This document shows positions 274 through 64,000 of a DNA stretch of 64,000 nucleotides, one piece after another. Under the pieces are notes generated by a model that saw only the letters and a list, made by a program, of their open reading frames with translations, searched no databases and was not told the DNA's origin. The DNA is from an uncultured Candidatus Micrarchaeota archaeon. GTDB lineage: Archaea > Micrarchaeota > Micrarchaeia > Micrarchaeales > Micrarchaeaceae. Both the position numbers and the translations under genes were made by a program. How positions within the stretch are numbered: the stretch's first letter is position 1; each line of letters starts with the position of its first letter. Location of the stretch: positions 53,190-117,189 of the forward strand of contig CAVUGN010000004.1 in NCBI GenBank assembly GCA_963741095.1, read 5' to 3'.

Positions 274-819
274 ATGGCGTACTACACTGGCGCGGGCGAC
301 TGCGGCTGCACCGGCACTCTGGGAAAAGCCAGGCTGGGAAAGAACGACAGGCTCATAGTCGCGATAGGAGACATCGACGAACTGAACAGCGCCATAGGCA
401 TCGCCATAACCTCGCTCACTGAAAAGCACGTGTCGAACATGCTCATGCACGTGCAGAACAATCTTTTCATTGTAGGGGCGGAGCTTGCCGCTTCGCTCAA
501 TGGCACGGATTCTGCGCTCAAGGAACGCATAAACAAGCAGAAGGTAAAGGGGCTCGAGAAAGCGATAGACGAACTCGGCGCCACCTTCCCGGAACCGAAG
601 AAGTTCGTGCTTCCAGGCGGATCTGACGGCGCGGCTCATCTTCATCTCGCAAGAGCGGTGTGTCGAAGGGCGGAGCGCTCGGTGATCGGCGCAAAATCCG
701 AGGCGAAGATAAACGACGAGCTTTTGAAATACCTCAACAGATTGTCGTCGTTCCTTTTCGTTGCTGCTTTGCACGCGAACAGCAAAGAAGGTGTAGAAGA
801 AAGACATCCAGTGTACTGA
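274..819 (+). CDS. pduO: ATP:cob(I)alamin adenosyltransferase, PduO/MMAB type
   Basis: YTGxGDxGxT N-terminus, GDIDELNSAIG, FVLPGG, LHLARAVCRRAER and YLNRLSS motifs. Confidence 0.92.
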   Translation: MAYYTGAGDCGCTGTLGKARLGKNDRLIVAIGDIDELNSAIGIAITSLTEKHVSNMLMHVQNNLFIVGAELAASLNGTDSALKERINKQKVKGLEKAIDELGATFPEPKKFVLPGGSDGAAHLHLARAVCRRAERSVIGAKSEAKINDELLKYLNRLSSFLFVAALHANSKEGVEERHPVY

Positions 820-59746: not shown

Positions 59747-61495
59747 TCAAACGATGCCGGAGATGCACTTCGCCACCGGCAGCGCGCTGCCGGCAATGAT
59801 CACGAGTATGTAGGGCGCGACGATCGCTATGAAGCTGCCCACGACGCCCCCAATGACCATGCCCATGCCGTAGCCCTGGAACTGTCCCTTGTGGGTGCCC
59901 GGCATTATGGGGCCCAGGGTGTAAACGATGGCGCCCAGTATGACCAGAAGTATGCTCAGCAGGAACACTATGCTGTGCACCTCGCTGTAGATGTTGCAGA
60001 GCACGTTGACAAGCCAGTCTGGGGAATTGTAGGGCGTGGCCGCGACGGCGAGCGTGATCGTGTTGCTCGTGCCATGGTAGCTGGAGGTTACCGTGTAGGT
60101 CCCGTTCGTCAGGGCGCCGGCGCTTCCAAGGCTTACGCCTGTGCTGAAAGCGCCAGTATTGGATATCGGGGCATCGGCAGTGCTCACCGAACCGTGCGGG
60201 CCCGCTACGGAGATCACCACGTCATTCTTTCCCGATTTCGGCGCGGGCGACACGACTCCCGATACCTGTATGACATCGTTTCCCGAGTTCGAGTTGGTTA
60301 CGGAGTTTGCGGTCACGTTGCGGAACTGCGTCGTCGGCACGTTAAGGATGAATGTTGTCTTGCCGCCGCTGCCATAATAATTCGAATCAACGGTGTACGT
60401 ACCGTTCGAGAGATTGTTCTCCCTTCCCAGCGTTATGCTGATGTTGAAAGCCCCGGAAGTCAGCACGGGGGTGTCTCTCGTGGCCACGGGCGCGCCATGC
60501 GGTCCGAATATGGAGAGTATGACTATCGAGTTGGCTGATTTCGGCGGAGGCGAAACGCTGCCTGACACGTGCACTATGCTGTTGCCCGAGCTTGAATTGG
60601 TCACCGCATTCGCCGTGAAGTTGTGGAACTGCGCGGCAGCGGGCACGACGGCATTGATGCTCACGTGATGCCACAGAAATGCGACAAGCAGGTACAGCAC
60701 TGCGCATATCAGCAGCGCGATAAGGAAGGATCTCAGTTTGTGGTCCTCCTCCATGACCTTTCGTTCCTCGGTTGGGTTGGTGCTCAGCGCCCTGGTGTCC
60801 ATGACCGTTTCTCCGGTGTTCGGATCAAAATTTGGGGTGGCCGAAGCCTCGTTCGGCTCCTCCTTCCCATTATCAAAAGCATTCGCTGGTGCTGGCTCGG
60901 GCTGATTCTGCTCGTCGAATTTCCATCCGGGCTCCAACGTCTCCTGATTCTCTTTGGGCGGTTCGGATTTCTGCTCGGAAGAAGGTTCCTCGCCCTTTTC
61001 TGGAACATCCTCTGGTGCCGGCATCCCAGCGCCCTCGGCCGGTGTCCCGCTTTCCGCGTGCGGAGGTTCCGCATGTTCCTCGTATTGGCCATAAGTGGGC
61101 GACGGCTCCTCGCTCTTCGGGGTTTCCGGCGCGCTTGCGACCGCTTCGCCCATCGTCAGCGGCTCTTCGGCCGCCTTCACGGGTTCGCGATACGGCTCTG
61201 CGCCCTGTTCCGTCTTCGGCTTTGCGGCGCGCTTCTTTTTTATCTTAATCCCAGGCGCCTGCACCTGCGAACTCTCCGTTGGCTTCTGCTCTGGCGAAGC
61301 TGCCACATCGACTCCTGGCTGTTCAGGTGAAGATTGCTGCCCTCCTGCATTCTGACCGCCTGGCGAGCCTGCCGATGTTGCCAGATCGTCCGGTCCTGAA
61401 GCCGTCCTTGGGGTGCGCTGCCGTTTCGCCCTGCCTTCAGGCTCCTGCGCGGGTCCTACGCCGACCTGCCCCTCAGCCAAATCATCATCCGCCAA
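59747..61495 (-). CDS. Membrane protein: acidic disordered N-region, TM, two Ig-like repeats, C-terminal pilin-like hydrophobic hairpin
   Basis: ~250 aa rich in E/P/Q/A, TM (FLIALLICAVLYLLVAFLW), 101-aa tandem duplication, then LCNIY...2 TM segments; TTG start. Confidence 0.75.
   Translation of the reverse strand: MADDDLAEGQVGVGPAQEPEGRAKRQRTPRTASGPDDLATSAGSPGGQNAGGQQSSPEQPGVDVAASPEQKPTESSQVQAPGIKIKKKRAAKPKTEQGAEPYREPVKAAEEPLTMGEAVASAPETPKSEEPSPTYGQYEEHAEPPHAESGTPAEGAGMPAPEDVPEKGEEPSSEQKSEPPKENQETLEPGWKFDEQNQPEPAPANAFDNGKEEPNEASATPNFDPNTGETVMDTRALSTNPTEERKVMEEDHKLRSFLIALLICAVLYLLVAFLWHHVSINAVVPAAAQFHNFTANAVTNSSSGNSIVHVSGSVSPPPKSANSIVILSIFGPHGAPVATRDTPVLTSGAFNISITLGRENNLSNGTYTVDSNYYGSGGKTTFILNVPTTQFRNVTANSVTNSNSGNDVIQVSGVVSPAPKSGKNDVVISVAGPHGSVSTADAPISNTGAFSTGVSLGSAGALTNGTYTVTSSYHGTSNTITLAVAATPYNSPDWLVNVLCNIYSEVHSIVFLLSILLVILGAIVYTLGPIMPGTHKGQFQGYGMGMVIGGVVGSFIAIVAPYILVIIAGSALPVAKCISGIV
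60040..60631 (-). repeat. Intragenic tandem duplication, 303-nt period
   Basis: QFHNFTANAVTNSSSGN...GPHG...NGTYTV (from 60631) versus QFRNVTANSVTNSNSGN...GPHG...NGTYTV (from 60328). Confidence 0.85.
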
Positions 61496-61587: not shown

Positions 61588-61594
61588 TTATAAG
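61588..61594 (+). promoter_or_regulatory. Archaeal TATA box for the riboswitch-led transcript
   Basis: TTATAAG lies about 25 nt upstream of the 5' end of the predicted aptamer. Confidence 0.6.
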
Positions 61595-61612
61595 TCTTGT
61601 TCAAGATATCTA

Positions 61613-61729
61613 ACCAACGAACGGTTGGGTTCAGATCCAGCCTGTGTCGGGGGAAAGTGGTGAGATTCCACTGCTGTGCCGCAACTGTAATCCCATAAGG
61701 ATGGGTGAGCCAGTCTGCCCGGGTTCGGT
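61613..61729 (+). promoter_or_regulatory. Cobalamin (B12) riboswitch
   Basis: GGGAA, AGTGG-TGAGATT-CCACT T-loop hairpin, GCTGTGCCGCAACTGTAA, CCCAT/ATGGG hairpin, B12-box GAGCCAG.CTGCC, closing CGAAC/GTTCG; directly precedes a B12-binding-domain gene. Confidence 0.85.
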
Positions 61730-61741
61730 AAAGCCACGAGC

Positions 61742-64000
61742 ATGGTAAAAATGGGCAAAACTATCTCTTCGGTCCCGCAGGACAATTCAAAAAGCCAAGG
61801 CGCAGACGCCAGTAGGATCAAGGAAATACAGATGCGCATGGACACTGCTGGCTGCCTCGGCGAGCTCAGAGTCCAAAAGGATCTGCCCGTCGACTCCAAG
61901 GCGCGCAAGGACCACGAGAAACTGGTGGACAAAGTCTCCTGGTTCGTGAGCGACTTCGCGGGCAGCATAATAAAGAACGCTGCGCATGTAACCGAGACAA
62001 GAATCAGCGAGATAAAAGACATGCTTGCAGGACTCGATCCCTTTATCGCAGGCGAGATCCTTCTCTCAATTGAGAAGACCTCCGATGTAGCCGCGCTGAC
62101 AAACAAGGCTTTCATCGATTCTCTGGGCCGCTTTGATGTGGACATAGCCTGTGCGCTGCTGTACGAGATACGGTTAACGGGCAACACAGCCGCACTCACG
62201 CAAGAAGGCCTTTTCACCGACTACGCGGTCAATTTTCTCAACAGACTGGGCGCCGAGGCCGCAAGCGAATGGATGAACTCGATAGGCATGACGGGCATTC
62301 CGGGAAGTTTCGGCGTGCTCACTAGCGAAAAGGCCATGGGCGGCAACGTGATTGACGCGATAGGCGGCAGTGCGAAGATAGCCAGCGAGTTGTCCTACGC
62401 AATAGGGGTAACCGGAAAGGTTGACGAACTGACCGATTCCGGTTTCCTGGACTCTTTGAAGGGGCTGAAACGGGACGCGGCAGCTTCACTGTTGTCCAGA
62501 ATTTGGTACAAGGGAAGCATTGACGGGCTCACAAACATCAAGACAATTGGAAAGATAGGCCGGGGTGAACTCGACGTGTGGGACGACGCGGCAACAATCA
62601 ATAACAATCGCGGCACGGCGCTGCCTCCTGTCATAATCGCGAAGCTAGGTGCCGACCACCACGACCGAGGCGCGAAGCTTAAAGCGCAGCTAATGGCCGA
62701 CTCTGGCTTGAGGGTCGTGTACATCTCCGCGAAGAGCTCCGGCGAGGTTATGGACGCTGCGAGGAGGGTGGGCGCCGGCGCCATAGGATTCAGCATGATG
62801 GACGATTCGCAAAAGAGCATCGTCGCAGAAACCGTGGAGCGGATCAAATCGCAGAGCATCTCCGGAATAAAAATATTCGGCGGAGGCGCAATCACGCAGG
62901 ACACGGTCAAGGATCTGCAGCGGCTTGGAGTGAACATGTTCGGGCAGGGCATAACCAACGATGCCGCGCTGCTCACGTTCCTCGGCACTACCATGCCTAA
63001 CGCGCAAAAATCCGCGAACCCGAGCGTAACCCAAATTCCATGGGTCGGGATTGCTGCGAGCAACACATACGCCAACGCTGGCTACACCTTTGCTGCATTG
63101 GGCGTATCATACGCCATGCCGCTCGGCGTTCAGATTGTTGCAAGCACGAATTCGCGCCAGGCACTGGATCTTGCAACACCCATCCACTACGATTCGGACG
63201 AGGATTCAAAAAGAAAGAAGAAACTAGAGATTTCCAATATGCACACTAATCCACAAAAAGCAGACAACATCAAGGAAGAATATCTCAACATCGCATCCAA
63301 CAACCCTCCGCAATCATCGTCCAAAATCGATGCGGCCGGATTGCAGTACGCTGCGACGGCTGTCAAAACGCCAATAAAAACGTTAGAATATAATGTCACG
63401 TCGACCTTGTTGAAAGGCGTTCAGTACACAAACATTGCTACATCAACAGTTTCGGTCCTCAGCCAACCCTCCCTCAATATGCGCGCACACGTCGAACCAG
63501 GTTTCACCTTCGGAGTCAGCATCCATCATCATGACGGCATCGAGAAAAAGCGGGGATTTGAGAACACCAGCGCCGTCCCTGCAGAAATCAAAACAAGCAT
63601 GAACAAAGAAGAAAAGCCCCTTGAAATTCCCGCATTCTACACAAAGCCGCAGCAAATGTCCAAACCGAGCATGACCATATTGCAATCTGCCTCTGAAAAA
63701 GCGCCAATTCGGATGGCGGTCATCGCATCGGTCGGCTCGAGGGGCACGCAGTACGATCAGATTGCTGCATATCCTTCAGTGGAAACCAGCAAAGACGCCT
63801 CAAACACATGGCGGACTGCCGAACTAAGTTTTGTCGCTGCAACCTATTCGGATTTGGGAGAATACGCAAAGAAAAAGCGGACATTGCCAAACTCCACTAT
63901 GGATTTTGATTCTAAATCGAACGACCCCCAAAAAGATTTGCCACAAGCTCCAGTGTTCCACGATCGTCTCCAGGTCGCGCCTGAATCTGATGTGACGAAA
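61742..64000 (+). CDS. Large cobalamin-binding-domain protein with helical repeats (partial, >753 aa)
   Basis: Not in ORF track (no stop before the window end). Manual translation is open from ATG 61742 and contains VIIAKLGADHHDRGAK...GFSMM...IFGGGAI, a methylmalonyl-CoA mutase C-terminal-like B12 domain at 62624-62983. Confidence 0.85.
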   Translation, partial: MVKMGKTISSVPQDNSKSQGADASRIKEIQMRMDTAGCLGELRVQKDLPVDSKARKDHEKLVDKVSWFVSDFAGSIIKNAAHVTETRISEIKDMLAGLDPFIAGEILLSIEKTSDVAALTNKAFIDSLGRFDVDIACALLYEIRLTGNTAALTQEGLFTDYAVNFLNRLGAEAASEWMNSIGMTGIPGSFGVLTSEKAMGGNVIDAIGGSAKIASELSYAIGVTGKVDELTDSGFLDSLKGLKRDAAASLLSRIWYKGSIDGLTNIKTIGKIGRGELDVWDDAATINNNRGTALPPVIIAKLGADHHDRGAKLKAQLMADSGLRVVYISAKSSGEVMDAARRVGAGAIGFSMMDDSQKSIVAETVERIKSQSISGIKIFGGGAITQDTVKDLQRLGVNMFGQGITNDAALLTFLGTTMPNAQKSANPSVTQIPWVGIAASNTYANAGYTFAALGVSYAMPLGVQIVASTNSRQALDLATPIHYDSDEDSKRKKKLEISNMHTNPQKADNIKEEYLNIASNNPPQSSSKIDAAGLQYAATAVKTPIKTLEYNVTSTLLKGVQYTNIATSTVSVLSQPSLNMRAHVEPGFTFGVSIHHHDGIEKKRGFENTSAVPAEIKTSMNKEEKPLEIPAFYTKPQQMSKPSMTILQSASEKAPIRMAVIASVGSRGTQYDQIAAYPSVETSKDASNTWRTAELSFVAATYSDLGEYAKKKRTLPNSTMDFDSKSNDPQKDLPQAPVFHDRLQVAPESDVTK

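Follow-up and report, generated by a model that had tools for sequence, protein, structure and literature searches.

Natural riboswitches are rare in Archaea. In bacteria, those that sense cobalamin count among the best-understood classes. The archaeal riboswitches listed in the available part of McCown et al. 2017 belong to the thiamine pyrophosphate (TPP), fluoride, flavin mononucleotide (FMN), Mg2+-I and guanidine-II classes only (PMC5473149). In the portion of a 2021 paper that was accessible, the fluoride riboswitch of Thermococcus kodakarensis, which is presumed to be translational, was called the sole natural archaeal riboswitch determined experimentally (PMC8241225). This study concerns 64,000 nucleotides (nt) of DNA from an uncultured Candidatus Micrarchaeota archaeon (hereafter the window; C4:53190-117189, ending at the contig end), and an RNA element near the end of that stretch. 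We consider it probable that this element is a short-form cobalamin riboswitch which is transcribed from an archaeal TATA promoter and acts as a translational OFF switch in the B12-acquisition regulon of an auxotroph.

The env8 hydroxocobalamin riboswitch is a system with a similar platform, and Johnson 2012 is said to be the source that Polaski 2016 cites for it. In the available text of Polaski 2016, env8 has a short aptamer and a short single-stranded linker between helices P1 and P13 (J1/13), and it controls translation through the ribosome-binding site (RBS), which is held in L13, the loop of a small P13 hairpin that kisses loop L5 (PMC5028336). The same text states that one or more nucleotides of the L5-L13 kissing loop are always left unpaired, that L13 needs to be presented as a stem-loop, and that the P1-P13 linker is 7 nt in the wild type, with no regulation at 0-4 nt (PMC5028336). 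The T. kodakarensis switch is like the present element in being natural and archaeal, and differs in its ligand and fold; the element described here is known from sequence alone.

No paper describing an archaeal cobalamin riboswitch was found in literature searches (supplementary tables excluded), nor any paper pairing 'riboswitch' with 'Micrarchaeota' or 'cobalamin riboswitch' with 'archaeal riboswitch'. Weak cobalamin matches may be listed in the tables of Gupta & Swati 2019, 'Riboswitches in archaea'. The class was called widely distributed 'in bacteria and archaea' in one source, the accessible part of which gives no detail (PMC9600662). In an acid-mine-drainage preprint, in which reads were mapped to four archaeal Richmond Mine acidophilic nanoorganism (ARMAN) genomes, the available text reports a cobalamin riboswitch only in Leptospirillum (10.1101/538918). 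Rfam-based annotation of any kind would pick up the aptamer itself, which is an ordinary family member. The novelty lies in the host domain, the archaeal wiring, and a link to bacteria of the candidate phyla radiation (CPR).

The RF00174 (Cobalamin, clan CL00101) model, whose gathering score is 31.5 bits, matched positions 61603-61737 (+) of the window with 36.0 bits (E 1.7e-5 over the whole 64 kb), and this was the sole non-tRNA match at Rfam gathering level in the window. A covariance-model search was among the checks named in the preliminary description of this DNA, which had proposed a cobalamin riboswitch from a list of conserved elements (P1, P2, CGGG/CCCG, GGGAA, a T-loop arm and the B12 box); all of these were recovered in place. 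The aptamer proper (61618-61727, +) was closed by P1 (CGAAC/GTTCG, 61618-22/61723-27) and comprised P2 (GGTTGGGT-TCAG-ATCCAGCC, 61623-30/61635-42), P3 (CGGG/CCCG, 61648-51/61718-21), the GGGAA junction (61651-55), which was aligned to the Rfam consensus, and the P4 hairpin (AGTGG-TGAGATT-CCACT, 61656-60/61668-72). These were followed by the GCTGTGCCGCAACTGTAA strand (61673-90), a conserved element of cobalamin riboswitches read in the sequence, P5 (61675-76/61682-83) with its loop L5 (UGCCG, 61677-61681), lower P6 (61685-87/61711-13), upper P6 (CCCAT-AAGG-ATGGG, 61692-96/61701-05) and the B12 box GAGCCAGTCTGCC (61707-61719). The helix names are our reading of the Rfam consensus together with established nomenclature.

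The conserved core (GGGAA, the GCCGCAAC-GUAA strand and the AGCCAG of the B12 box) was aligned to the consensus and was invariant in all 14 copies recovered from genomes. The element has the core and the helices of the bacterial RF00174 riboswitches, and its targets, like theirs, are of the B12 transport or binding type. It differs from them in its archaeal host, in a TATA promoter abutting P1, and in its short form: 57 model positions, the P6 extension, are replaced by 4 nt, and upper P6 is a bare 5-bp hairpin. The RF01689 (AdoCbl-II) model, to which the env8 form belongs, gave 26.5 bits for the window copy and 29.4 for a second copy in the same genome, on contig C2. As both scores were below the gathering score of 36.5, the element was not filed under RF01689, although the P6 extension is likewise missing there. 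The RF01482 (AdoCbl) model gave partial matches of 23.5 and 32.6 bits, under its 50-bit gathering score, and a lineage model, R1, scored the window copy at 142.1 bits. It is very probable that the element is a functional cobalamin-class aptamer in an archaeon, and it would be expected to bind cobalamin or another cobamide.

Covariation in relatives was a further check that had been proposed. The seven helices of P1-P6 were imposed on a MAFFT alignment of the 14 genome copies, and 90.6% of cells paired, compared with 26-48% when the partners were slid. Fifteen of the 32 pairs changed on both sides, and the covariation score was reached in none of 500 shuffles. Compensatory changes were present in P1, P2, P3, P4 and upper P6; P5 and lower P6 never varied and were uninformative for covariation. 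Compensatory changes in P1, P2 and P3 separate even the two copies inside this genome. In a joint alignment of 23 copies, which was fitted to the model, 24 of 39 pairs changed on both sides and 91.2% of cells paired (33-43% in the slid controls). These counts point to an RNA structure that is under selection.

The TATA box reported upstream of the aptamer was present as TTATAA at 61588-61593 (+), with its first T 30 nt ahead of P1 (61618). A TATA-like box was found in all 16 archaeal-type copies (14 from genomes and 2 from metagenomes), with the first T 23-31 nt before the first P1 pair. For comparison, such a box preceded the mature 5' end of 10 of the 28 tRNA genes of this genome, at 24-38 nt, a spacing which the riboswitch promoters appear to match. 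Since the spacing is conserved and tRNA-like, the transcript should begin at P1 or a few nt before it, and the box would serve as an archaeal promoter.

The host genome (1.08 Mb in 11 contigs, 94% complete) has a single small-subunit (SSU) rRNA gene, which scored 1314 bits with the archaeal model and 984 with the bacterial model. Together with the RF00174 membership, this upheld the earlier proposal of a compact B12 switch in an archaeon. Several homologues of the DUF6580 protein encoded after the C2 copy carry the source names Micrarchaeota or Micrarchaeales. The preliminary description had also raised a chimeric join with bacterial DNA, and the window element does lie 2.3-2.4 kb from the end of contig C4, with its nearest platform relatives in CPR bacteria. 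Contamination or a chimera is nevertheless extremely improbable. The second RF00174 copy (40 bits) is inside a 265 kb contig. Within the same family and order, G050 and G071 are single-contig genomes, and each has an orthologous locus deep in its sequence (at 1.14 of 1.21 Mb in G050). A genome of the same genus (G022) shows synteny around the element, the divergent upstream gene and the target gene on either side of it being both orthologous. The content of guanine and cytosine (GC) is even along the window, and the archaeal copies have a TATA box, which was absent from all seven CPR-bacterial copies. It is thus conservation in related genomes, single-contig ones included, that answers the chimera question.

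Of the genomes sampled, 4 of 61 in the family had RF00174 matches, and 13 of 151 in the order carried copies. Counted per family without the host genome, copies were present in 4/74 genomes of family f1, 0/1 of f2 and 8/75 of f3. A phylum-wide sample gave no copy in 80 genomes of 18 other families, so that matches were confined to f1 and f3. Among 14 control genomes, 7 had RF00174 matches, all of them bacterial, and none of the 4 archaeal controls did. Model R1, when run over the 151 genomes of the order, returned the same 14 copies and one degraded copy, in G093. As R1 found no further divergent copies, the archaeal set is without variation in L5 or in the platform loop L13 described below. 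The degraded element (L038:1501-1612 (-), G093:C60) scored 29.5 bits on R1 and had no Rfam match; P1-P4 are recognisable, but it has neither the GCCGCAAC strand nor a B12 box.

This patchy spread over two families, together with the degraded copy, would suit a relic, left from a transfer of bacterial DNA and now without any regulatory function. Such a relic would not be expected to keep its core and platform near-invariant while its stems carry compensatory changes across the two families, nor to fix its promoter spacing in 16/16 copies, nor to stand twice in one genome before different B12-related genes, and we regard this explanation as very improbable.

Downstream of P1 and separated from it by a 6-nt linker (J1/13, GUAAAG, 61728-61733; 5-9 nt across the 16 archaeal copies) is a 12-mer, CCACGAGCAUGG (61734-45), that was invariant in all 14 genome copies and in 15 of 16 when the metagenome copies were included. 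The 12-mer of the sixteenth copy begins with U, which gives a U-G wobble. It is the most conserved stretch of the element, exceeding most of the aptamer. It was considered as a general translation signal of the genome, and this was ruled out because the 1.08 Mb hold no occurrence apart from those at the two riboswitches (2 found against about 0.13 expected). The 12-mer can be read as the hairpin CCA-CGAGCA-UGG, that is, P13 (61734-36/61743-45) and the L13 loop (61737-42). The preliminary description had been unable to identify a P13 kissing loop and had supposed that the expression platform might be atypical. Both statements are revised here, as the loop of this hairpin is complementary to L5 and the hairpin occupies the most conserved part of the element.

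The proposed L13-L5 pairs are A42-U77, C41-G78, G40-C79, G38-C80 and C37-G81, with A39 bulged (last two digits of the window positions). Five Watson-Crick pairs and one bulged A were possible in all 23 copies, and the pairs never varied; only 19 of the 4096 random 6-mers pair this well with L5. P13 by itself folds at -0.1 kcal/mol, which is marginal. On the 23 copies it paired in 98.6% of cells, and two of its three stem pairs changed on both sides. An L5-L13 kissing loop would thereby link the aptamer to the platform. The element resembles env8 in its short aptamer, its short J1/13, a small P13 hairpin with an unpaired purine in the kiss, and putative translational control; as far as the env8 text available goes, it differs in that one A is bulged here and two purines in env8, and in that the Shine-Dalgarno (SD) bases would lie in the P13 stem and not within the loop. 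Three other roles for the 12-mer were rejected. Pairing of its CCAC with the P4 5' strand, and replacement of the P6 3' strand by its CAUGG, were ruled out because P4 and P6 covary while the 12-mer is fixed. A third candidate, an anti-P1 hairpin between the P1 3' strand and CGAGC, was seen in minimum free energy (MFE) folding; it is perfect in the window copy only, as most copies carry GUCCG at the P1 3' strand and so have a C-A mismatch with CGAGC.

The 3' end of the 16S rRNA (GATCACCTT; G000:C1, around 100590-100600) lacks the CCTCC anti-SD core. Starts of open reading frames (ORFs) in this genome show a GGTGAT signal that peaks at -9 to -11 in a minority of genes; 55 of 797 ORFs have GGT at -9. 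In the archaeal copies a GGU lies within the 3' strand of P13, at -6 to -9 (61744-61746 in the window, at position -7), and may be a weak SD sequence adapted to this host.

In the mechanism that we consider likely, a translational OFF switch that depends on the L5-L13 kiss, cobalamin would bind the four-way-junction aptamer, and in the bound state L5 (UGCCG) would dock on L13 (CGAGCA, with one A bulged) of the hairpin 6 nt past P1. Docking would stabilise the otherwise marginal 3-bp P13 hairpin, the 3' strand of which holds GGU, the sole SD-like bases, and stops 5 nt short of the start codon. With GGU sequestered, the small ribosomal subunit would be unable to load; in the cobalamin-free state the hairpin would be open and the gene translated. 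The regulon would be one of B12 acquisition, made up of a cytoplasmic B12-binding protein, a membrane protein like the S components of energy-coupling factor (ECF) transporters and, in relatives, a BtuF-type protein.

The position of the start codon bears on this mechanism. The preliminary description had noted an ATG 12 nt downstream, and an ATG at 61742 is indeed present and in frame; it lies within the 12-mer. The conserved start is more likely to be ATG 61751, from which the predicted protein begins MGKTISS, with an N-terminus identical to that of the G022 orthologue. The ATG within the 12-mer was ruled out as the conserved start, since it is in frame only where the gap is 5 nt and the gaps are 4-7 nt. 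When the first ATG was taken, it fell 4-7 nt past the 12-mer in 13 of 14 copies, and a long ORF began there in 11 of these 13. The first ATG of G050 is followed by 5 codons only, and the next, 5 nt past the 12-mer, opens the long ORF. There is no U-tract between aptamer and start in the window copy, as had been described, and with the start codon 5 nt after the structured RNA there is no space for a terminator. The earlier suggestion that the switch controls translation is borne out to this extent.

The targets of the 14 copies were a B12-binding protein (5/14), a DUF6580 protein (5/14), a Peripla_BP_2 protein (1/14) and proteins of unknown type (3/14); eleven copies therefore precede a gene for a B12-binding-domain, S-component-like or BtuF-like protein. 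The window target (61751-64000, +), a lineage-specific cobalamin-binding protein whose gene runs off the contig end, is composed of helical repeats and a PF02310 B12-binding domain (aa 297-403, E 8.6e-12) with the motif D-H-H-D-R-G, which agrees with the B12-binding motif noted previously. Its orthologues follow the riboswitch in G022, G050, G071 and G111, and the one in G050 has 654 aa. Only 8 relatives were found in a search of 5.8 billion proteins, and DxHxxG is conserved.

The target of the C2 copy is a DUF6580 membrane protein, and the term 'DUF6580' was found in no paper in the literature search. Its AlphaFold model (pLDDT 91.8) had ECF S components (FolT, ThiT, RibU, BioY) as all of its 15 best PDB matches, with TM-scores of 0.46-0.72, weak Foldseek E-values of 0.02-0.5 and identities of 10-23%. 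A sequence search against PDB chains gave nothing below E = 1, and distant relatives carry PF07155. A further difference from ECF transporters is that EcfT was not found in this 94%-complete genome, and the DUF6580 protein would therefore have to work alone. Solitary B12 S components (BtuM) exist. In one relative the target is a secreted protein with Ig-like and Peripla_BP_2 (BtuF-type) domains. The three targets of unknown type (L010:286-1491 (-), G099; L014:1647-2177 (+), G145; L015, G142) had no Pfam match (402 aa and 177 aa) or consisted of a 39-codon ORF only, and could point to new B12-related functions or to starts that were miscalled.

The genome encodes an adenosylcobalamin (AdoCbl)-dependent class II ribonucleotide reductase (RNR; 555 bits), three B12-binding radical S-adenosylmethionine (SAM) enzymes and a PduO-type cob(I)alamin adenosyltransferase (PF01923, 174 bits; window 283-774 (+), 61 kb upstream of the riboswitch). 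CobS and CbiC were not found in the 94%-complete genome. On its gene content the host looks like a B12 auxotroph, and the B12-capture genes of an auxotroph would sensibly be repressed at B12 sufficiency. The locus suggests that ultra-small DPANN symbionts regulate their scavenging of B12, and it points to a likely role in B12 uptake or handling for the DUF6580 protein and the Micrarchaeota-specific B12-binding protein, both of uncharacterised families.

That the window target binds B12 rather than making it could also be taken to favour an ON switch, in which B12 would activate expression of a protein that uses or stores it; one source reports bacterial corrinoid riboswitches of the activating kind (PMC10327014). 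The sole conserved structure, however, is the bound-state element of P13 and kissing loop, which covers the SD. No conserved SD-masking alternative for the free state was found among the copies, the pairing of the P1 3' strand with CGAGC being mismatched in most of them, and the co-regulated genes are of the uptake type. An ON switch is accordingly considered quite improbable.

In the C2 copy (L001:1386-1500 (-), G000:C2), the ATG under riboswitch control opens a 42-codon upstream ORF (uORF) which overruns the ATG of the DUF6580 gene. Within this uORF, about 30 nt past the 12-mer and ahead of the DUF6580 gene, is GGCC followed by T8; in the other four DUF6580 copies the gene starts directly after the 12-mer. 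Here the platform may have taken a different form, based on a leader peptide or on termination.

Metagenomes were scanned with a DUF6580 target alignment, which yielded 80 loci, and model R1 matched in 17 of them. Two of the 17 were of the Micrarchaeota type, with the TATA box and the 12-mer, upstream of DUF6580. Nine matches were on low-GC contigs, and comprised seven distinct full-length copies (L103, L105, L109, L118, L119, L121 and L123), one duplicate (L111) and one cut by a contig end (L107). They were labelled CPR-type from the source names (Paceibacterota, Nomurabacteria and similar) of close homologues of their S-component genes. In these copies L5 (UGCCG) and L13 (CGAGCA) are exactly kept, with a J1/13 of similar length, and the neighbouring gene is homologous to the archaeal DUF6580 gene (34-44% identity). 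The differences are that the P13 stem is UCC/GGA and reads into GGAG, that a hairpin and U-tract terminator follow, that there is no TATA box, and that the B12 box has AGUCCG. The CPR switch is also placed differently, downstream of the S-component gene and before small secreted proteins. In both SD versions, GGU and GGAG, the 5' strand of the stem is complementary to the SD. In L105 and L119 the order is an RNR-like ORF, the S-component gene, the riboswitch with terminator, and two small secreted proteins. The first ORF, by eye, we take to be an adenosylcobalamin-dependent ribonucleotide reductase. From this gene order it follows that in CPR bacteria the switch controls the genes after the transporter, and not the transporter itself. 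In a third group L5 is UCGCG, and a downstream hairpin, GCC-CGCGU[U/C]A-GGC, was present in 4/4 distinct loci; its loop matches the changed L5, so L5 and the downstream loop change together.

Oligo-T tracts terminate archaeal transcription, and a genuine aptamer could act mainly on transcript abundance, through oligo-T termination, RNase access or mRNA decay. The T8 of the C2 copy and the terminator that follows an identical L13 in the CPR relatives would fit such a mode, and in env8 mRNA abundance contributes to the response, as stated in the available text (PMC5028336). Against this, 13 of the 14 copies, the window copy among them, have the start of a long ORF or the first ATG 4-7 nt past P13 with no T-tract between, which leaves no space for a terminator ahead of the coding sequence. 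Regulation mainly at this level is judged unlikely.

Several observations weigh against a translational OFF switch built on a cobalamin aptamer and a kissing loop. The Rfam score exceeds its threshold by just 4.5 bits. MFE folding of 61612-61790 was no better than that of shuffles (z = 0.00); it was not used as evidence, because MFE folding is uninformative for an RNA with tertiary structure. The covariation of P13 amounts to one evolutionary event, archaea versus CPR, in an alignment fitted to the model, and L5 and L13 are invariant throughout the archaeal and CPR set. The proposed kiss rests on complementarity and a single between-group co-change, which comes from more distant bacterial relatives with a differently spaced platform. 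A continuous 9-bp pairing of 61737-46 with 61673-81 (-10.3 kcal/mol) is an alternative; it would replace P5 and P13, yet would sequester GGU equally. The SD is weak, being of 3 nt and at -7, compared with the genomic peak at -9 to -11. Three of the 14 targets are without a recognisable B12 link, and the C2 copy, with its uORF and T8 before DUF6580, may work differently.

The likenesses between the archaeal and the CPR copies could be explained if the riboswitch-plus-transporter cassette had moved between CPR bacteria and DPANN archaea and had then been re-wired. The terminator would have been lost and a TATA box set against P1, and P13 would have been rewritten from UCC/GGA (SD GGAG) to CCA/UGG (SD GGU), the L5-L13 kiss being left untouched. 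The new SD fits a 16S rRNA 3' end without CCUCC. We put this forward tentatively, as a possibility that falls a little short of an even chance. If true, no class of cobalamin riboswitch and no translational riboswitch with a kissing loop would have been described in Archaea before this one. The archaeal lineage also points to RNA-level gene exchange with CPR bacteria, which have habitats in common with these archaea. Being conserved, it lends itself to testing how a translational switch of bacterial type operates alongside archaeal promoters, ribosomes and weak SDs.

Two minor observations were made on the host. The SSU match (G000:C1:98605-100598, L003) spans 1994 nt against a model of 1478 positions, and the gene probably bears an insertion of about 500 nt, perhaps an intron. 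The divergent neighbour of the riboswitch (window 59747-61495 (-)) encodes a low-complexity protein of 582 aa with no real Pfam match, which has a Pro/Glu/Ala-rich N-terminus, repeated Ser/Asn-rich domains and C-terminal transmembrane segments; this gene is kept beside the riboswitch in G022.

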